From IMG/VR virus record IMGVR_UViG_3300045988_053504, positions 1 to 39,888 of that record: a stretch of DNA of 39,888 nucleotides; one strand, given 5' to 3'. The notes beneath the pieces are model-generated. The model searched no databases. It saw only the letters and a list, made by a program, of their open reading frames with translations, and was not told the origin of the DNA. Below, in pieces: positions 13,560 through 38,097 of this stretch. How positions within the stretch are numbered: the first letter of the stretch is position 1; each line of letters opens with the position of its first letter. This DNA comes from a virus. The position numbers and the translations under genes are program-made.

Positions 13560-13724
13560 AACAACAAAACCGCCCGGCGGCAACCAGGCGGCAACTACAT
13601 AACTCCGAAGAGATACATATATACTTCAAAGATATTTTATCATCTTCGGGCAGCTGTCACAAGAAGAACATTAGTTCACGGATAGCTGTTATTTTTGTAC
13701 ATTTTTTTAAAGGAGGATGATAGA

Positions 13725-14981
13725 ATGGCGCTGACAACTTGTCCGGAGTGTGCCGGGAAGGTATCCGACCGAGCTGACGCATGCCCACATTGCGGATACC
13801 CGTTAAAGAAAACACCACGTAAAAAGCCGAAACCAAACCGCAGACGTAAGTTACCAAACGGCTTCGGCAGCATAACGGAAATACGGCACACAGATCTGAA
13901 AAATCCTTTCTATGCCCGTGCGAATTGCGGAAAAGATATGTATAATAGACCGATCTTAAAGCCTCTTAAACCGGAGGCATATTTCCCGACTTATGAGGAG
14001 GCCATGGAGGCCCTTATAAAGTACAACAAGGGCAAGGTGGACTTATCTAAGGACATGCCCGTGGAAATGCTGTATCGGCTCTGGTTTGCGGAATATGAGC
14101 AGGAAGTAGCTGCTACAACCGCAAGAGTGGCTAAGAGTGCATTCTCTTATTGCCGATCCATATACAAGAAGTCTGTGCAGTCTCTTCGGATTGCAGACAT
14201 AAAGAACTGTATAGAAAACGGAATGGCAATAGAGACACGGGGAAAAGACAAAGGAGAGCTTAAAAAGGCATCTGCAAAGACAAAAATAAACATGAAATCC
14301 ACCCTTTCTATGATGCTGGACTATGCCAAAGAGCTTGAGATCGTAGACAGGAATTGCGCCAGGGAGTGCAACCTTTCTAAGCCGACAGTGAAAGATGCAG
14401 CGAAGGCAGAAAACCCGCACTTTTCTTTTTCTGCTGATGAGCGTGTGACACTGTGGGAAAACCGGGATATGGAGAATGTAGACCTGCTTTTGATTGCCTG
14501 TTATTCCGGCTGGCGGCCGGATGAATTATGCCAACTCAAACTTGAAGACATCGACCTGGAAAACAACCGCATGAAGGGCGGCAGCAAGACAGATGCCGGT
14601 ATAGACCGATATGTTCCGATTCACCCGGAGATCAAACCTCTGATTCTGGCCCGCTATCAGAAAGCGCAGGAACTTGGCAGCGACAGGCTAATTAACGTGG
14701 AGTCCCGAGGAAAGATCCGTCCAATTACATACGCAATTTACACGACCCGATTCCACAAGATTGTAAAGGAATTGGATCTGGATTTAAAGCATCGACCACA
14801 CGATACTAGGGATACATTTGCCACTGTTGCGAAAGAGGCGAATGTGGACGAATATGCGCTTAAGTATATAATCGGGCACTCTATTACGGACATAACAGAG
14901 CGGATCTATACGGACCGAAAGCCAGAGTGGTACTATAAAGAGATGTGTAAAATTGTTGTCGACAAATACTCGACAAATTAA
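13725..14981 (+). CDS. int: Tyrosine integrase with an N-terminal zinc ribbon
   Basis: The track ORF starts at 13695. ATG 13725 follows AAAGGAGGA. Zinc ribbon is CPECAGKVSDRADACPHCG. Catalytic region is GWRPDELCQL ... HDTRDTFAT ... IIGHS ... ERIYTDR. Confidence 0.85.
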   Translation: MALTTCPECAGKVSDRADACPHCGYPLKKTPRKKPKPNRRRKLPNGFGSITEIRHTDLKNPFYARANCGKDMYNRPILKPLKPEAYFPTYEEAMEALIKYNKGKVDLSKDMPVEMLYRLWFAEYEQEVAATTARVAKSAFSYCRSIYKKSVQSLRIADIKNCIENGMAIETRGKDKGELKKASAKTKINMKSTLSMMLDYAKELEIVDRNCARECNLSKPTVKDAAKAENPHFSFSADERVTLWENRDMENVDLLLIACYSGWRPDELCQLKLEDIDLENNRMKGGSKTDAGIDRYVPIHPEIKPLILARYQKAQELGSDRLINVESRGKIRPITYAIYTTRFHKIVKELDLDLKHRPHDTRDTFATVAKEANVDEYALKYIIGHSITDITERIYTDRKPEWYYKEMCKIVVDKYSTN

Positions 14982-30751: not shown

Positions 30752-31747
30752 TCACGCTGGCGTACTTGCCTTTGGCGCATAAACAGCAAATGGACAACGT
30801 TTCGTTTTGTCCTGCTCCATGGAATTGATCGGGTTTGGAATCTCCCAACCAAGACGCATCACAGCACGCAAAGCAACCATGTCATTCTGCATCAGGTTAT
30901 ACACAATCTCTTTTGTAGAAGGGTCCTGGATCACACCTTCTGTAAAGATCTTGAATGTAATGTCCTGACGGATAGCATATACTGCCTGCTGCATATCCCC
31001 CATGATCATTTTGGCCTTTGACGGATCAAACGCCCCGTTACGTGGGAATTGCATTGGATTTCCATCTAATGCATATGGTGTAGAACCCTGCATATCTGTT
31101 TTGAACAGCGGTCTGCCGTTTGTGTCCATAAGTTCTCTTAGTTCAGATCTCATTCCAATGTCAGCGATCGCGGCGCTTGGAAAATATCCGCTCTTCTCAA
31201 TTTTAGCGATCACGCCGTCTTTTCCCATGATGTCCTTATACATATTTGACGTTTCTGTTACAACTGCTTCTGCATTGGTTGCCGTAGTAAAGATATCGTC
31301 TCTCCATGACGCTGGTTTATCCACGCCAAAAAGAACCGCTCCGTCAACTTTCTTACCAAATGCCTCTACAAGCCTTGGTTTTACTTCTCCCCAAATATCG
31401 TAATCTGCATCATCTAAGACTGCTTCAGGGATCGGTACAATGACTGCGATCTCCTCGGCATAGATCTTTTTCTTATCCCATGCCATTTTTGTTGTCTGTT
31501 TTGTCCCGGTGTCTCCGTTCACAAAGTAAGCAACCGGCAGCATATCAAGTACCGGCTGTACTAAAGTCTTCCTTGACATGTTCGGCAACTTCCTGAAAGT
31601 AGAGAGTACCGTAGAACTTTCTGTTACTCCCTGGATAATTTCTCTGCTTGTTTCTTCGGGGATCAGTGCATCTGCCCCACCCCGGTCAATGATATTCGCA
31701 CTTCCAGCAAAAAACTGGATGTTCATTGGGATTCCATTTTTCTTCAA
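30752..31747 (-). CDS. Major capsid protein (HK97-fold type)
   Basis: 331 aa following the scaffold gene. The N-terminal leader MNIQFFAG is shared with the scaffold protein. Confidence 0.75.
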   Translation of the reverse strand: MKKNGIPMNIQFFAGSANIIDRGGADALIPEETSREIIQGVTESSTVLSTFRKLPNMSRKTLVQPVLDMLPVAYFVNGDTGTKQTTKMAWDKKKIYAEEIAVIVPIPEAVLDDADYDIWGEVKPRLVEAFGKKVDGAVLFGVDKPASWRDDIFTTATNAEAVVTETSNMYKDIMGKDGVIAKIEKSGYFPSAAIADIGMRSELRELMDTNGRPLFKTDMQGSTPYALDGNPMQFPRNGAFDPSKAKMIMGDMQQAVYAIRQDITFKIFTEGVIQDPSTKEIVYNLMQNDMVALRAVMRLGWEIPNPINSMEQDKTKRCPFAVYAPKASTPA

Positions 31748-31759
31748 GATGATTTCCTC

Positions 31760-32365
31760 CTATCTCTTTATTGAATTTCTAATAATATCGTTGATCTGAT
31801 CATTTATAGACGGCTGTCCTTCTTTCCCACCGTTCTGACTTCCAAAGGACACTCTCATCTGGCCCCCAGACTGCCCTGCATATTTGGGATTTTCTTTTAA
31901 GAACAGATCAAGTGCCTTTGAAAAATCCGTCTTTTCATCTACCAGTTTCCCGGCCTTGAACAGGACATAGTCAAGATCATCCGCATTAATACCTTTTTGT
32001 GTTGCGATCTTCTCTCGGTTTGACTGTTCAATCTTCTTATTTGCTTCATCAAGTTGTGTTTGTAGTTTTTTGGGGTCCGGCTGGCTTGCTGCCCTTGCGG
32101 TTTTGTAGTCTGCAATCGCTTGTGTAATTTCTTCGCTGCTCATTCCCTGCTGCTGAAAAAAACTCCTTAGCGCCGAATTGGTCGCCCTGGTCTCTCTTGC
32201 CTCTACAATCGCATCCAGCTGGTCTTGTGTATAAGATGCTCCGGTTGTCTGCGCTCCGGTTCCGCCTCCGGCGTTCTGATTTCCTTCCTGGCCGCCGTTG
32301 CCACCTTCTCCTCCGTCTCCGCCATCTGCAAAGAACTGGATATTCATTGGGATCATATTTTTCAT
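31760..32365 (-). CDS. Scaffolding protein (DUF4355-like)
   Basis: The track ORF starts at 32425. ATG 32365 follows GGAAAGGAACGAGT. It has an MNIQFFADGG leader, a Gly-rich linker and helical Q/K/E-rich regions. Confidence 0.7.
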   Translation of the reverse strand: MKNMIPMNIQFFADGGDGGEGGNGGQEGNQNAGGGTGAQTTGASYTQDQLDAIVEARETRATNSALRSFFQQQGMSSEEITQAIADYKTARAASQPDPKKLQTQLDEANKKIEQSNREKIATQKGINADDLDYVLFKAGKLVDEKTDFSKALDLFLKENPKYAGQSGGQMRVSFGSQNGGKEGQPSINDQINDIIRNSIKR

Positions 32366-32432
32366 ACTCGTTCCTTTCCGTATCTGTTCGTCAACATCCC
32401 GTGGGCAGTTTTTGGCCTTAACCACGTTTTGG

Positions 32433-32460
32433 GCATAAAAATAACACGCCTTAAGCGTGC
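32433..32460 (-). terminator. Terminator-like hairpin upstream of the scaffold gene
   Basis: On the - strand: AGCACGC-UUAAG-GCGUGUU (7 bp including one G-U) followed by AUUUUUAUG. Confidence 0.45.
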
Positions 32461-32711
32461 TTGATTTCCTGTATAAGTTGCTCTATCTGCCGGATATACT
32501 TCTGATTGCTTGTAACCCGGATATGGCTTTCCAGTGTTCGCAAGTTGCGGCTCCTTGGAAGTCTGCGACGCTCCACGTTGGATTTTATAACCAAGGATAC
32601 CCGTTTACTCCGGCAGTGGGTGTGAAGCGCAAAATTGTCCGGATTGTATAGAATCCATTCTCCTGTTTTTCTGTGCGATCTTTTAAGTTTTAATACACCG
32701 CTCCCTCCTCT
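32454..32711 (-). pseudogene. 86-codon open frame with a strong SD but no canonical start codon
   Basis: GGAGGGAG lies at 32708-32701. The in-frame codons 5-8 nt downstream are GTA and TTA. The frame is open from TAG (32712-32714) to TAA (32451-32453). Translation ...LKLKRSHRKTGEWILYNPDNFALHTHCRSKRVSLVIKSNVERRRLPRSRNLRTLESHIRVTSNQKYIRQIEQLIQEIKHA is very basic. Confidence 0.3.
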
Positions 32712-32720
32712 CTAATAGCA

Positions 32721-32750
32721 TAACAAAAGCACCCATCTCTGGATGCTTTC
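32721..32750 (-). terminator. Terminator-like hairpin after the zinc-ribbon ORF
   Basis: On the - strand: AGCAUCC-AGAGAU-GGGUGCU (one G-U pair) followed by UUUGUUAUG. Confidence 0.5.
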
Positions 32751-32760
32751 TACACTGACT

Positions 32761-32943
32761 CTACTCGTTTTTTGTAATATCCCCATCAAAAAGTGCGGCT
32801 TGACCGCAGTTTTGACATTTAAAGCAAATAGTGTTTCTTCCAAATTGTAATTTTTCAACCTTCACATTTTCCGCCCCACAGAATGGACACTTCCCGGCGT
32901 CCCCATTCTTTTGATAAGATATCAAATTTTCTAACCATTTCAT
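32761..32943 (-). CDS. Zinc-ribbon mini-protein (60 aa) coupled to the MuF gene
   Basis: CPFCG ... CQNCG. ATGA overlap with the stop of 32940-34547. Confidence 0.65.
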   Translation of the reverse strand: MKWLENLISYQKNGDAGKCPFCGAENVKVEKLQFGRNTICFKCQNCGQAALFDGDITKNE

Positions 32944-34547
32944 GGCTCCACCCTCTTTCTGACTATATTATACCAAAATTCTTCAAACTTGTAAGCCTGT
33001 TTTTCCATTTCTGCTAAATGATCTTGTGTATACTTTTTCCCGTACTTCCGAAGCTGTAAAACATGGCATCTTTCATGGATGATTGTCCTTACCAGTTCTT
33101 TTTCATCTTTAAATGCCCTTGGAAAAAGGTCAATCCTTCCTATGTTATCATAGTCCGTACTTCCAAGATAATGTAGCTTTATAAGCTCTTCATTTCTTTG
33201 TATTTTTATTGTTAAATCTCTTATTTCAAGTCCATATTTTTTAGAGATTTTATCGACACTTCTTTTCTGTAATGGTATTTCTAATCCTGCGAATTTTCCA
33301 GTATTCTTTTCCTTCCTTGTAAGTTTTGCCGCCCATACAGCCTTTTGTGCCACGCTCCGGTTGAATCCCACAATATTTCCACTACTGTCCAGAACTGCAT
33401 GAACCTGAGTCCTTGCAGATTCTACCCGGCGGCCCGTCTGCCTGCAAAACTCTTTTAGCTTCTTTTCCTGCTCCTTGAGCCGTACAGATTCGGATTCAAA
33501 ACGCTGTTGTAAGGTATTTTTCAGAACATCATCATCGCCTGCTGCCTTGATCCCGGCATCGTATCCGGTCAGCTTGCGCTTTGTGTTCCTGATTTGCCGC
33601 TCCTGGAAACGCTGCATCTGCGAGACTTCGTATTCTGTATAGTTCTTTCCTCCGTATGTATAGCTACTTTCCTGGTATTCTTGTAGCATCTTATCTGTAT
33701 ATGCAGGAACAGATACCCCAGGTATAAATGCATAGAAGTTATGACGGCAGTTCCATCCGCACAGCCCTGGCCCTGTTCCATATCCGGTACTTTCGTAAAA
33801 CGGCGGATACTTGGGATCTTTCCCAGAGATACAGAAAACCTTCCCTTGCCAGACTTCATGCTCCGGCCTGGCCCCGCTGTGTGCCGTAGTCTCGACATAG
33901 TCACAGTCCATTTCTTTGGCATATTCCAGGTTCAGCTGTGCCGCCGACTGGTTTACTCCGGTCAGCACACTGCGCCTGACTGCAACATCCAGTTTATCGG
34001 TATGACCAGATGGATATAATACCTCTGTACCCTGTACTGCTGCCTCTTTGATCGCATCTGCTATGGCCTTATCATAGCTGAAAGCCCCCGTTTGCACTTT
34101 CAGCGTAGCACTATTGCAGGCGTTTATATATGCGCTCTGGGCCTTGTTTGCAGTCGTTAGAGTAAGATTGCTAATCTCTCCTTTGGTCTTCCGGAAGTTT
34201 GCATTTAAAATCTTCTGCATTTCTTCCGACTGGTGTAATTCGATCGGTTTTTTCCCTGCACGTTTGTAGATCACAGATTCATTTTTTATGTTTTTTACTC
34301 CGGATTCTTCAAACAACCGCTTAACTTCCCGGTCTGTATACCCGGACACTTGGCCAATCCGTTTGATTGCGTCCTGATAGACAACTCCTGAGTTCTGTAA
34401 AACATACGCCTGATGCTTTGCCGTGTCTGTGATCTGCTTTGTTTTTACTATTCGGCGGGCAATGTCTCCGATAATAGCCGCTGACAGTTCATCTATTAGA
34501 GCAAGCAACTGATCTGAAAATTTCTCTAAGTATTCCGGATCAAGCAT
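32940..34547 (-). CDS. MuF / SPP1 gp7-like head morphogenesis protein with an extra C-terminal HExxH domain
   Basis: MuF core: ARPEHEVWQGKVF ... GPGLCGWNCRHNFYAF. A coiled linker follows. The C-terminal roughly 100 aa contain LVRTIIHERCHVLQLRKYG, with the HExxH codons at 33063-33077. Confidence 0.75.
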   Translation of the reverse strand: MLDPEYLEKFSDQLLALIDELSAAIIGDIARRIVKTKQITDTAKHQAYVLQNSGVVYQDAIKRIGQVSGYTDREVKRLFEESGVKNIKNESVIYKRAGKKPIELHQSEEMQKILNANFRKTKGEISNLTLTTANKAQSAYINACNSATLKVQTGAFSYDKAIADAIKEAAVQGTEVLYPSGHTDKLDVAVRRSVLTGVNQSAAQLNLEYAKEMDCDYVETTAHSGARPEHEVWQGKVFCISGKDPKYPPFYESTGYGTGPGLCGWNCRHNFYAFIPGVSVPAYTDKMLQEYQESSYTYGGKNYTEYEVSQMQRFQERQIRNTKRKLTGYDAGIKAAGDDDVLKNTLQQRFESESVRLKEQEKKLKEFCRQTGRRVESARTQVHAVLDSSGNIVGFNRSVAQKAVWAAKLTRKEKNTGKFAGLEIPLQKRSVDKISKKYGLEIRDLTIKIQRNEELIKLHYLGSTDYDNIGRIDLFPRAFKDEKELVRTIIHERCHVLQLRKYGKKYTQDHLAEMEKQAYKFEEFWYNIVRKRVEP

Positions 34548-34557
34548 CTGTTATCAC

Positions 34558-35988
34558 CTACTCTTCTCGAATATCCAGCGGTTCTTCTGCCTGCTGCGGC
34601 ATCATCTTCGTTGCTTCCGCCTCATCCACGCCATACCGCCACATCAGGTATTGTACCTTGTCAATGATCCCTGCGCTGACCTCCTGCATCCTTATCGTCT
34701 GTTCTGTATTGCTATCAACAATGATAGAATCATCAAATTTAATCGTAGCCTCTGAATCTATATTCAGGGACAATCCGGTTTCATTTCCCAGCCGCAGGAT
34801 GATTCGTATCAACTCTTTTAAAACAGATTCCAGAATAATCTCATGCTTACATATAGACCGGTACAGGTTAGAGTTCTCGGATATGACCTGCGTTGCCGTA
34901 GTCAGGTTTCCACTGTCAAACTTGTAATACTTCTCGCCAAGCCCTGCCTTGGTAGAAAAGATATTCAGGTTGTCATTTAGCCCTTGCTGGTGCTCGGCGG
35001 CTCTTAGAGACATATCTATTTCTTTCAGGAGTTGGTCTGTTGCTCCATCATCCTCCGGCATCTGGTAGAATACTACGTCTTTATCGTCAAATGCGGGTGT
35101 GCCAAATATATCTTGTGAGACCATGTCTGGCCTGACAAAGATCCTCTTCTTTCCCAGCACAAACTCATTGATATAGGAATCATATACAATGTCTATCCCC
35201 TGCATCACATCCTCCGCATTGGCATAAACACTGATCCCCATGGGATTATCCGGGTCAATGTTATTTGCAATATTGAGACGGTCGATCACAAACTGTTTTT
35301 CCGTTGTCCCGGTGTAGATCACGGGAACCATTCCAGTAAACGCAGTGATCTCGTTCCAATCCGTGACTTCTTTCATAGAGCCGTTTGTAGCATCTACGAC
35401 CTCGTTACGGATCTTGTACTGAAAAAATCCATCCGCACTGTTTTCAAGTTCATGATATTGCAGATGTGCATACTTCTTTCTGTTACAGTTCTTATAACTC
35501 ACAAAGCAACATTCTGTAATTGAACCATTCTCCCAAGAAAGCGGATAAATATTTGGGGCTGTGTAATAATTTATCCTTACTCTTCCTCCGCCTTTGATAT
35601 CACCTGCATCATTAATCACAACATCGTCCAGGTATGGAACAATCGCTACTGTACCAAGGGCTGCTTTCTTTTCCTGTCCCTCGTTCATGCGGACTGTAAA
35701 GTTATTCTCTTCAAGAATCTGTGTGATAAATTCATCTGCTGCCTGATCATCCAAGGTGATCGACACCTTCTCGTTGAACAGCAGATCTGCCCAATCCTCC
35801 GATACCTTTTTCCCCATTCCAAGTGTTTTCCTCTTACACCGGATCTGGTTCTTCCCGTTATATACCTTGTAATTGTGAAAGTTCTTGACCTCTCCCTCAT
35901 ACCAGGATTTCCACTGGTGGATATGTCCGTAAAAACTGCCATCCACGGAGTCATATCCTTTCTTATTTAGATACTGTAAAACATTCAT
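34558..35988 (-). CDS. Portal protein (SPP1 gp6-like)
   Basis: 476 aa between TerL and MuF, with a 4-nt overlap with terL. Confidence 0.75.
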   Translation of the reverse strand: MNVLQYLNKKGYDSVDGSFYGHIHQWKSWYEGEVKNFHNYKVYNGKNQIRCKRKTLGMGKKVSEDWADLLFNEKVSITLDDQAADEFITQILEENNFTVRMNEGQEKKAALGTVAIVPYLDDVVINDAGDIKGGGRVRINYYTAPNIYPLSWENGSITECCFVSYKNCNRKKYAHLQYHELENSADGFFQYKIRNEVVDATNGSMKEVTDWNEITAFTGMVPVIYTGTTEKQFVIDRLNIANNIDPDNPMGISVYANAEDVMQGIDIVYDSYINEFVLGKKRIFVRPDMVSQDIFGTPAFDDKDVVFYQMPEDDGATDQLLKEIDMSLRAAEHQQGLNDNLNIFSTKAGLGEKYYKFDSGNLTTATQVISENSNLYRSICKHEIILESVLKELIRIILRLGNETGLSLNIDSEATIKFDDSIIVDSNTEQTIRMQEVSAGIIDKVQYLMWRYGVDEAEATKMMPQQAEEPLDIREE

Positions 35989-37316
35989 GATGCATCATCC
36001 TCTCTATCTGCTGCCGGAAGAAACATCCTAACCCACTTCCAAAGTCCCATGATGCAGTATCTTGTAGCATCCTGGCAATGGTCATTTTCTTTCAGAGGTT
36101 CTTCCTTTCCTTTTTCTATGCTCTCCGGTTTATATCCATACAGCTCCATCTCTTCTGCCAGATGCTTCTGCTCTGGACAAAAAGAAAGCACCTGGAAGGA
36201 CATGAGCTTTTGCACTCTTCCGATGCCTGTTTTTACGGTATTGTCCGCATCTACTATCTTGATCCTTGGTACTTGCCGTTTTATCTCTTCTGCCAATCCT
36301 TTCGCAGACGGATCAATGAATGCCATTCGGACATAGCAGTGATATTTCTTTTCTATCTCTGCTACAAATGCCTTGAAGTCTTGGGCGTATTCAGATGGGG
36401 ACTTTTGCCCCTCTTCCCTGCCGCAGTGATAATACTCTGCAAGGCCCATGACTTTCTTCTGATGCAGATAGATCCCGTAGGGTTGATAGGTGGTAGCGTT
36501 CATCTGTCCATAGTCTATGCCGATGCCTATCACATCAGGACGATCCTGAGGTGCTTTGATATGCAACGCCTTGTTGAACATGTAATAGATCAACTCATCC
36601 AGACCGATGCTCTGACCAAGCCACACCCAGTTATATAGGCGTTCGTCCATCTGTTTCATGATCTCGGCAGATTCTATGAGCTTCTTACCAAGCCAGGAAA
36701 CAGGAACATCCCTATAATCCACATGGATATGAAGCACATCCGGACGCTCTTTCATCTTCTCCAGCCACTTTATGACTGGGGCCGCTGGATTTTTCGGAGG
36801 GTTGAAAAAGTATACCATCTGGAACTCTTCATCGTTTCCACGGATAAAGGTTGCTTCTATATTGGACAGTTCGTCTTCCCCGTCTCCTTTATCGAAGAAC
36901 TCCGTCAGCTCGTCAATAACAACTCTCTTGATCGGCTTACTCTCGTCAATCATTCCCTTTGTATCGTCGATACTGTCGTTCCCGGTAAAATAAATGGTGT
37001 TTCCATTCTTTTTATACTGGATCTCCATGGGACTGACTGTGATCTTGAAATCCCTCTTTTTGTTAAGCCCGAGCCTGTGAATCCCTCGGAGTGTTTCTTT
37101 ATATACCGTTTTTTTCAGCTTATTGTGAAATTTCCTCATGACCACAGTAGAACAGTTATCGTCTGAGATGATCTTATAGATATCCCGTATGCCGCCAAAG
37201 GAGGATTTTGTCCCGGCACGTCCAGATGTAATGATTAAATGTGTGTGTTCTGTGTCATTGAACGCTTCCCGGAATTTCGGAATAATAAGATCACTAATCC
37301 GTATTTCTTTAGACAT
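35985..37316 (-). CDS. terL: Terminase large subunit (PBSX/Terminase_3-like)
   Basis: Walker A-like ITSGRAGTKSS, Walker B-like RVVIDELTE, and a C-terminal nuclease region with acidic residues (IGIDYG ... FIDPS ... NDHCQDATRY). Confidence 0.85.
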   Translation of the reverse strand: MSKEIRISDLIIPKFREAFNDTEHTHLIITSGRAGTKSSFGGIRDIYKIISDDNCSTVVMRKFHNKLKKTVYKETLRGIHRLGLNKKRDFKITVSPMEIQYKKNGNTIYFTGNDSIDDTKGMIDESKPIKRVVIDELTEFFDKGDGEDELSNIEATFIRGNDEEFQMVYFFNPPKNPAAPVIKWLEKMKERPDVLHIHVDYRDVPVSWLGKKLIESAEIMKQMDERLYNWVWLGQSIGLDELIYYMFNKALHIKAPQDRPDVIGIGIDYGQMNATTYQPYGIYLHQKKVMGLAEYYHCGREEGQKSPSEYAQDFKAFVAEIEKKYHCYVRMAFIDPSAKGLAEEIKRQVPRIKIVDADNTVKTGIGRVQKLMSFQVLSFCPEQKHLAEEMELYGYKPESIEKGKEEPLKENDHCQDATRYCIMGLWKWVRMFLPAADREDDAS

Positions 37317-38097
37317 CGTTTATAATCACCACCTGGTCATTTTCCCCGTCATCCTTATCGGACTCTAACTTCCTGCGCTGTGCCTGCAGCAATTTAACCT
37401 TTTCTTGCTGCTCAGGTGTCGCAAGATCCATGTGATCGCTAATCCATTGTATGGCTTTCATTCGGTCAGCCAGCTTCACCTTTACACCGTCCTTGCCCTT
37501 TGAAACCTCTGATAACAGTGTTCCATCTACCTCTCCAGCATTCTTTATATTTACATAAGATATGGTCATAGGCCCATTATCCGTTTCTATTTCCATGTTC
37601 CCAAAGTCGGCAAAGTCGGTTATATCTGCCCGGGCAATATCTAAATACCATTGAAATACGTCTGAACCTTCCAGCATCGCTTTATTAAGCCTGCCCTGCT
37701 TTAGTTGCTGTATTTCCTCTTTGATTCGTGTATTTCTGAGTAGCCCTGGACCGTTTGTGAGTGCCGTTTCATATCTGCATCCATAGGCTTTCTGATATGC
37801 CTTTGTAGCATTAAAGCATCTGACATACTGTAAACAAAAAAGCCGTTGCTTATCGGTTAGATCAGGATTGTTTACTACCTGTTCTACTTCCGGTGCAATG
37901 GCTTCTTTCTGTTCTGTTTCCTGTTTCCGAACGTTCGCTTTCTTTCCCGAACGTTCGCTATCCCATCCCTGAGTGCTTTTCCATCGTCTCACGGTCCCAG
38001 GGGGCTTTCCGATCTCTTTTGCTATATCTACCAGATTCATACCTTGCTTATACATCTGCTCTGCCTTTATGGAATCCGGACTTCTGCTCCTTGGCAC
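37309..38097 (-). CDS. terS: Terminase small subunit (N-terminal HTH plus Terminase_2-like domain)
   Basis: MNLVDIAKEIGKPPGTVRRWKS is an HTH. LTDKQRLFCLQYVRCFNATKAYQKAYG is the terS signature by recall. 8-nt overlap with terL. Confidence 0.8.
   Translation of the reverse strand: MPRSRSPDSIKAEQMYKQGMNLVDIAKEIGKPPGTVRRWKSTQGWDSERSGKKANVRKQETEQKEAIAPEVEQVVNNPDLTDKQRLFCLQYVRCFNATKAYQKAYGCRYETALTNGPGLLRNTRIKEEIQQLKQGRLNKAMLEGSDVFQWYLDIARADITDFADFGNMEIETDNGPMTISYVNIKNAGEVDGTLLSEVSKGKDGVKVKLADRMKAIQWISDHMDLATPEQQEKVKLLQAQRRKLESDKDDGENDQVVIINDV
37927..37959. repeat. Two copies of a 13-bp repeat, CCGAACGTTCGCT, each containing the 10-bp palindrome CGAACGTTCG
   Basis: Copies at 37927-37939 and 37947-37959, 20 bp apart, inside terS. 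The two copies are read in different codon phases (SERS and ANVR). Confidence 0.9.

Follow-up and report, generated by a model that had tools for sequence, protein, structure and literature searches.

Polymorphic toxins of temperate phages built on a MuF domain have been described by Jamet et al. (2017, BMC Biol 15:75; PMC5576092). The accessible passages of that paper report metallopeptidase domains in 20% of 191 MuF toxins and a small downstream open reading frame (ORF) in 89%, place muf genes right after portal genes, and identify PF06152 as 'MuF2' of the MuF superfamily. In the literature that we surveyed, experimental work on MuF toxins concerns the (p)ppApp-synthetase type and not peptidases. 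Here we analyze a locus in viral DNA of 39,888 nucleotides (IMG/VR record IMGVR_UViG_3300045988_053504, positions 1 to 39,888; hereafter the window), where the gene for a 535-amino-acid (aa) minor head protein with a predicted zincin-like HExxH domain at its C-terminus is followed by the gene for a 60-aa zinc-ribbon protein, referred to as ZnR (Table 1). We propose that this is probably a MuF-type polymorphic effector locus, composed of a MuF2 head domain, a swappable zincin module and ZnR as its immunity partner.

As far as the accessible text of PMC5576092 describes the MuF toxins, the locus shares with them an N-terminal PF06152 domain, a gene position right after the portal gene, residence in a temperate phage or prophage, a variable C-terminal module common to other polymorphic toxin families, and a small ORF (<150 aa) next to it. 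It differs in its HExxH domain, which scores below every curated cut-off in Pfam and NCBIfam, and in its dedicated zinc-ribbon partner, which is absent from the main text of PMC5576092 in the passages available. MuF toxins with metallopeptidase domains were already known in 2017, and their strict pairing with a zinc ribbon appears to be undescribed. The surveyed literature yielded no description of the zincin family, of its invariable ZnR partner, or of their joint presence in MuF1, MuF2, contact-dependent inhibition (CDI), type VI secretion system (T6SS) and orphan settings.

The 535-aa protein matches PF06152 (Phage_min_cap2) over residues 2-368 (E 2e-103; 346 bits against a cut-off of 26.3) and phrog_581, 'minor head protein' (E 8e-106). 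It does not match PF04233 (Phage_Mu_F), and its match to the SPP1 gp7 model TIGR01641 is weak (E 0.015). An earlier note on this DNA had described the core as MuF (gp7-like); its placement in the MuF superfamily stands, but the core belongs to PF06152 rather than PF04233. The ORF, its GWNCRHNF motif (aa 264-271) and the HExxH codons are as that note had them, with HERCH (aa 491-495) encoded exactly at 33063-33077, and the His/Glu stretch DHLAEMEKQ that it pointed out is located at aa 509-517. Two of its statements required revision. The 'coiled linker' said to lead to the C-terminal domain is a helical region (about aa 305-371) that is part of the conserved core and is present in 409-aa homologs without an extension, and the extension of more than 200 residues reduces to a variable part of only ~130 aa (406-535). 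In a full-length AlphaFold2 model the MuF core was poorly resolved (predicted local distance difference test (pLDDT) scores of 30-45 for residues 88-288), and this model was used for the linker/domain boundary only.

The C-terminus of the protein is a recombinationally swappable cassette. Among its 3330 homologs, close relatives (61-87% identity across the core) share the sequence through about aa 405 (...GNIVGFNRSVAQKAVWA) and diverge fully beyond. Surveying the C-termini, as the earlier note had proposed, we found at least seven different ones on these close cores, or none: the same HERCH module (proteins of 524-535 aa), a module with HEVTH or HEITH (556-557 aa), an ADP-ribosyltransferase (ADPRT; PF03496; 587 aa), at least four unannotated modules (513, 529-531, 533 and 564 aa), and no extension (~409 aa). 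Thus the C-terminus is not conserved in all gp7 homologs; in the note, such conservation would have counted against an effector role. At the DNA level, blastn similarity to all seven relatives of other C-terminal classes (L002, L004 and L006-L010) stops at codon 404-406, at ~33333; identity to L002 is 90.6% up to this breakpoint. Similarity past the breakpoint returns only at a 26-nt element before the next structural gene, or later. The gene after muf also differs with the C-terminal class, and encodes unrelated proteins of 99, 101, 52, 56 and 72 aa in five other classes. The joint change of C-terminus and downstream gene by class is a signature of polymorphic toxin/effector systems.

The C-terminal module (aa 412-535) is predicted to adopt a minimal zincin fold, which was modeled confidently. 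The structure prediction suggested in the earlier note (AlphaFold2, aa 400-535, 26-sequence alignment) gave a mean pLDDT of 90 and a predicted template modeling score of 0.82, with a zincin-like topology of one helix, three strands, a long HExxH helix and a second long helix bearing a conserved Glu (predicted elements in domain numbering: H29-38, E47-50, E63-65, E72-75 and H83-103). H491, E492 and H495 are invariant both in 26 close sequences (alignment A1) and in 71 diverse carriers of the domain (alignment A2); E515 lies in a near-invariant 'ME' in the former and is an invariant Glu in the latter. Because the H, E and H and the Glu 20 residues on are invariant across 71 diverse carriers, the HExxH is not a chance match.

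Comparison with described peptidases placed the domain closest to SprT-like proteins, below threshold. The cut-off of PF10263 is not reached (20.2 bits against 25.6 for the domain alone, E 5.5e-4; 17.6 bits for the whole protein), and just 2 of the 71 carriers match this family at E<=1e-3. The best matches in BFVD (predicted viral structures) are SprT-like proteins as well (E 1.3e-3; template modeling (TM) score 0.54). The module and the SprT-like/Wss1/Spartan proteins have a similar size and an associated zinc-binding element. They differ in the third ligand, apparently Glu515 here and a His shortly after the HExxH there, and in the zinc ribbon, which is here a separate, independently mobile and sometimes orphan gene. 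Sequence searches of the PDB with the 535-aa protein and with the domain profile returned nothing relevant.

The same minimal core, as judged from the model, is found in the metallopeptidase (MPTase) domain of polyvalent proteins such as ArdC, N4 vRNAP and P1 DdrB (PF18818; Iyer et al. 2017, PMC5512222), described as an N-terminal helix, a three-stranded sheet, the HExxH helix and a helix with the Glu ligand. MPTase and MuF are hubs of the domain network in these phage- or plasmid-delivered proteins (PMC5512222). The cut-off of PF18818 is not reached (14.8 bits against 27.5, E 0.03). Moreover, the window protein has one effector module, compared with 2-15 domains in polyvalent proteins, and is set apart by a strictly linked ZnR gene and by its occurrence in CDI and T6SS toxins. 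Tox-MPTase1-5 (Zhang et al. 2012, PMC3482391) are, in the accessible part of that paper, likewise small C-terminal HExxH modules of Rhs, T6SS and type VII secretion system toxins and distantly Wss1-like; however, the window protein matches none of those Pfam families at E<=1. In a table passage of PMC3482391, the field that is seemingly for immunity proteins holds a dash for the Tox-MPTase families.

A profile search identified the domain in 533 representative clusters at E<=1e-3, and it is C-terminal in all 150 among the matches listed. The family make-up of 71 long carriers comprises Phage_Mu_F (35), Phage_min_cap2 (14), VG15 (3), DUF637 with PT-VENN (1) and DUF4280 (1). The DUF637/PT-VENN carrier is an orphan CdiA C-terminal fragment that adjoins a CdiA gene with a two-partner secretion (TPS) domain. 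Another carrier is encoded directly after a VgrG gene and is therefore considered a T6SS effector. Given its presence in Phage_Mu_F, MuF2, CdiA and T6SS proteins, the domain is a module from the shared pool of polymorphic-toxin domains.

This distribution bears on the possibility that the domain is a morphogenetic or self-processing protease, which would trim MuF, scaffold or capsid proteins or release itself, with ZnR controlling its timing and no delivery to the host. The short MuF2 of relative L010 hints at a recurrent link between MuF and proteases: it has 409 aa, and the next gene, joined to it by an ATGA overlap, encodes a stand-alone 115-aa HExxH protein (L010 3727-4074; HEIVH) of phrog_1233, a family of unassigned function. 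Also, autoproteolysis has been proposed for some MPTase domains of packaged proteins (Iyer et al., PMC5512222). However, profile comparison detected no relation between the L010 protein and the window module, and no ZnR gene comes after the L010 HExxH gene. The domain is absent or replaced (by ADPRT or others) in most close MuF2 relatives and is therefore not needed for head assembly, and it is also the last domain of CdiA and T6SS proteins, where no capsid is involved. A role in processing of the structural proteins is further opposed by their own N-termini: the capsid ORF (MKKNGIPMNIQFFAGS...) and the scaffold-position ORF (...MKNMIPMNIQFFADGG...) have the motif IPMNIQFFA in common, and this ...NIQFFA start resembles FF|A, the cleavage site of the host protease Prp in ribosomal protein L27 and, for S. 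aureus phage 80alpha, in the capsid and scaffold proteins (PMC5744158). The likeness suggests processing by host Prp in a Lachnospiraceae phage. On the relatives that do without the domain, the NIQFFA motif and the CdiA and T6SS carriers, we rejected the HExxH domain as a prohead protease, and we regard a morphogenetic role in general as decidedly improbable.

ZnR is most likely the cognate partner of the zincin module, and its sequence and gene context predict an inhibitor or immunity protein. Its zinc knuckles are two CxxC pairs, one being CPFC and the other lying within CFKCQNC. The gene (32761-32943) starts in an ATGA overlap with the stop codon of the MuF2 gene, read as 'GCCATGAAAT', as the earlier note had reported. 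We collected 70 module-encoding loci (37 in genomes, 33 on viral contigs), 69 of which contain the carrier stop codon inside the sequence; a ZnR-family ORF directly follows this stop in 69/69 (50 non-redundant pairs). An overlap of 4 nt between ZnR start and carrier stop is seen in 21 of the 52 distinct genes, and the ZnR start is offset by -16 to +18 nt in the 46 genes for which it was measurable. The pairing extends to the non-phage carriers: the module is followed by a 95-aa ZnR homolog, also in an ATGA overlap, at the CdiA locus, and by a 94-aa homolog at the T6SS locus. Distances among the domains correlate with those among the ZnRs (Mantel r 0.60, a value that none of 2000 permutations reached), and ZnR diverges faster. 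The family has the consensus 'MKWLxNL...G.CPxCGS.NTDY...GYG.(I/V)WCNxCK.A.HISR...P..L.Y', in which W3, CPxC and CxxC do not vary across 33 sequences. All 37 ZnR profile matches are 57-107 aa long, and no HExxH-ZnR fusion is found among them. ZnR lacks a hydrophobic N-terminal stretch, suggesting a cytoplasmic site of action.

The ZnR family has no curated model and is labeled 'hypothetical', 'Com' or 'Elf1' in the sources. Canonical members have only generic, sub-threshold zinc-ribbon matches in Pfam and NCBIfam, and their PHROGs matches are small families of unassigned function (best phrog_6504, E 7e-6). The best family matches of ZnR are Lar_restr_allev (PF14354, 22.6 bits, cut-off 28.6) and anti_R_Lar (TIGR03655, 22.4 bits, cut-off 39.6). 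Lar and related small phage zinc-ribbon proteins are, like ZnR, phage-encoded, ~60 aa long and of the CxxC...CxxC type. These similarities would fit an arrangement of unrelated neighbors, in which the HExxH region is degenerate or non-catalytic and ZnR is an independent moron, for example one with Lar-like restriction alleviation. The Lar matches, however, are sub-threshold, cover the zinc knuckles only and are on par with those to ~25 generic zinc-ribbon families, and ZnR has in addition the 'MKWLxNL' N-terminal helix and a strict HExxH linkage. A linkage of 69/69 whatever the carrier, together with catalytic residues that are invariant in 71 carriers, makes it highly improbable that the two genes are unrelated.

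We also identified ZnR genes without the zincin module. In Budvicia aquatica, an orphan ZnR gene (L110 4001-4282) is part of a small-gene array that adjoins an Rhs fragment. In Clostridium, another (L107-L109 2501-2752) is on a chromosomal island, next to a gene with a McrBC domain, and occurs in 195 blocks of the contig collection. No HExxH domain was detected near the orphan ZnRs at E<=10 (hmmsearch with the domain profile, six frames, 4-8 kb per locus). Judged by their gene context, orphan copies are as would be expected of an immunity gene. The orphan ZnRs, the swappable C-terminus, the sharing with CdiA and T6SS loci and the 69/69 linkage support the layout of effector and partner on a MuF carrier that the earlier note had proposed.

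Alternatively, the two genes may encode a split SprT-like protease, in which ZnR is a detached zinc-binding (DNA-binding or activating) sub-domain that the HExxH domain needs, for example to act on DNA-bound proteins. In SprT/Spartan proteins a zinc-binding sub-domain adjoins the protease (PF17283, SPRTN structures), and the best sequence and fold similarities of the window module, all sub-threshold, are to SprT-like proteins, as noted above. Tight translational coupling would also yield a 1:1 stoichiometry. However, CDI and T6SS deliver the toxin polypeptide only, such that a separate cofactor would be missing in the target cell, and orphan ZnRs without an HExxH domain nearby, one of them in a small-gene array beside an Rhs fragment, would be difficult to explain if ZnR were an obligatory cofactor. 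The candidate third ligand is a Glu located on the following helix instead of the His found in the SprT/Wss1 motif. ZnR also evolves at a higher rate than the protease, a usual trait of immunity proteins. We therefore consider a split protease improbable and favor ZnR as the immunity partner of a MuF-borne effector.

The SPP1 protein gp7 is established to enter the procapsid at the portal and to exit with the DNA. By analogy, the MuF2 core of the window protein may put a few copies of it inside the capsid at the portal, to exit with the DNA. The tethered zincin would then enter the cytoplasm of the infected cell and cleave a cytoplasmic target, for which the earlier note suggested a host defense or repressor protein; zinc would be held by H491, H495 and E515, with E492 as the putative catalytic base. 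ZnR, translationally coupled to the protease, would act as a cytoplasmic inhibitor in the producer and in any other cell that carries ZnR. The accessible passages of PMC5576092 offer two candidate roles for toxins of this type, namely competition between lysogens and non-lysogens, or a mildly toxic enzyme that modulates early infection or the lysis-lysogeny decision. Our data do not choose between these roles.

Several observations weigh against an effector with ZnR as its immunity protein. In addition to the missing match to a curated family, Foldseek against the PDB gave no significant match (best E 0.4); its list is led by zincins (1ge6, 5giv, 7z5g MATCAP, collagenases), all weak (E >=0.4). 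Together with the copy of a relative at 70% identity (L001), the window ZnR makes up a short sub-clade (60-65 aa), in which the N-terminal helix and the two zinc knuckles are retained but the otherwise near-invariant 'SR' motif and the C-terminal 'P..L.Y' tail are missing; the inhibitory competence of the window ZnR is therefore less certain than that of canonical members. Finally, immunity would help lysogens only if ZnR is expressed outside the late operon. A sigma-70-like promoter match in the 3' end of the MuF2 gene (32967-32995, (-); CTTACA, 17 nt, TATAAT, extended -10 TG; 10/12), 24 nt upstream of the ZnR ATG, could permit such expression. Its TATAAT stems from the Tyr-Asn codons of '..WYNIV..', and promoter-like matches are no more numerous than in shuffles.

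A broader interpretation would join these observations. The zincin and ZnR may form an undescribed toxin-antidote family that uses three routes (MuF capsid ejection, CDI and T6SS), with the injected protease as an infection-promoting effector on a cytoplasmic, possibly defense, protein of the host, and with chromosomal orphan ZnRs, such as the widespread Clostridium copy by McrBC, as host antidotes. We regard this as doubtful. If true, orphan ZnRs would constitute an anti-phage defense that acts by neutralizing a protein co-injected with the DNA.

Widespread occurrence of MuF toxins in gut prophages was predicted in 2017, and the present locus provides a small and clearly bounded test case in a Firmicute lineage from the human gut that can be cultivated. 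As the pair is common to MuF, CDI and T6SS, work on toxicity, rescue and substrates could use standard hosts, with results expected to carry over from one system to another. Such work would name, and assign a predicted function to, two families that are now 'hypothetical' or mis-annotated as Com or Elf1.

The locus lies in the head/packaging module of a temperate siphovirus (Table 1). The window also codes for an amidase endolysin, a tail protein and a 1830-aa ORF in the tape-measure position. A protein 100% identical to the 535-aa ORF, annotated 'phage minor capsid protein [Anaerostipes hominis]', is present on bacterial contigs of up to 442 kb, and the element is therefore a prophage.

Table 1. 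Positions of the effector locus, its parts and neighboring genes in the window.
Feature	Coordinates	Strand	Basis or remark
MuF2/Phage_min_cap2 minor head protein gene, 535 aa	32940..34547	(-)	ORF list, PF06152, phrog_581
Conserved MuF2 core, aa 1-405, ends ...GNIVGFNRSVAQKAVWA	33333..34547	(-)	61-87% identity to relatives with other or no C-termini
Flexible linker, aa 396-411	33315..33362	(-)	pLDDT <50 in full-length AlphaFold2 model; coincides with recombination breakpoint
Predicted minimal zincin-like metallopeptidase domain, aa 412-535 (124 aa)	32943..33314	(-)	AlphaFold2, profile search
HExxH: H491, E492, R493, C494, H495 (HERCH)	33063..33077	(-)	on helix 482-502
E515 codon, candidate third zinc ligand, 20 residues past H495	33003..33005	(-)	on helix 511-533
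ZnR (zinc-ribbon protein) gene, 60 aa	32761..32943	(-)	ORF list; generic zinc-ribbon matches sub-threshold
Variable cassette (zincin domain, ZnR gene and ~300 nt without convincing ORF)	32460..33333	(-)	blastn similarity gap
Terminator-like hairpin and U-rich tail, just past ZnR stop	32715..32756	(-)	dG -18.1 kcal/mol
Small terminase	37309-38097		
Large terminase	35985-37316		
SPP1-type portal (SPP1_portal)	34558-35988		10 nt upstream of MuF2 gene
Scaffold-position ORF	31760-32425	(-)	
HK97-type major capsid	30752-31747	(-)	downstream of MuF2 and ZnR genes
Tyrosine integrase (Phage_integrase)	13695-14981		

A second HExxH module (HE[VI]TH...QW.E..C.AQE, in the 556-557-aa proteins) is present on near-identical MuF2 cores (L002/L003 and L085-L106), and is followed in 22/22 loci by its own zinc-ribbon-type protein of 53-72 aa. 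Similarity between this pair and the window pair is weak in hhalign (11% and 48% probability). The two are apparently independent, parallel arrangements, for which homology is unproven, and the combination of a protease with a zinc ribbon may therefore have arisen more than once.

The terminator that the earlier note placed after the 60-aa ORF corresponds to a stable hairpin with a U-rich stretch (fold of 32712-32762: z -3.97; 0/200 shuffles fold as well), although a simple terminator scanner missed it and gave 32808-32794, inside the ZnR coding sequence, and 32461-32443. From the ZnR gene to the next structural gene, 335 nt (32426-32760) contain no convincing ORF, and an Rfam search of 32200-33100 returned one insignificant match only. 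The 26-nt element (32434-32459) is 100% identical in the otherwise diverged L004 and overlaps the T-run hairpin at 32461-32443. In relatives, the slot corresponding to these 335 nt holds extra genes, for example a YjcQ-like gene or an N6-adenine methyltransferase gene.

Two further regions of the window encode proteins of possible interest. A 199-aa macro-domain protein (PF01661, PF14519; 38115-38714, (-)), whose gene directly precedes that of the small terminase, could relate to ADP-ribosylation conflicts, as the MuF of sister phages bears an ADPRT. The early region contains an ORF for a D12-class N6-adenine DNA methyltransferase and a partly overlapping ORF that matches the NA37 nucleoid-associated protein family (1717-2538 and 680-1825, both (-)).

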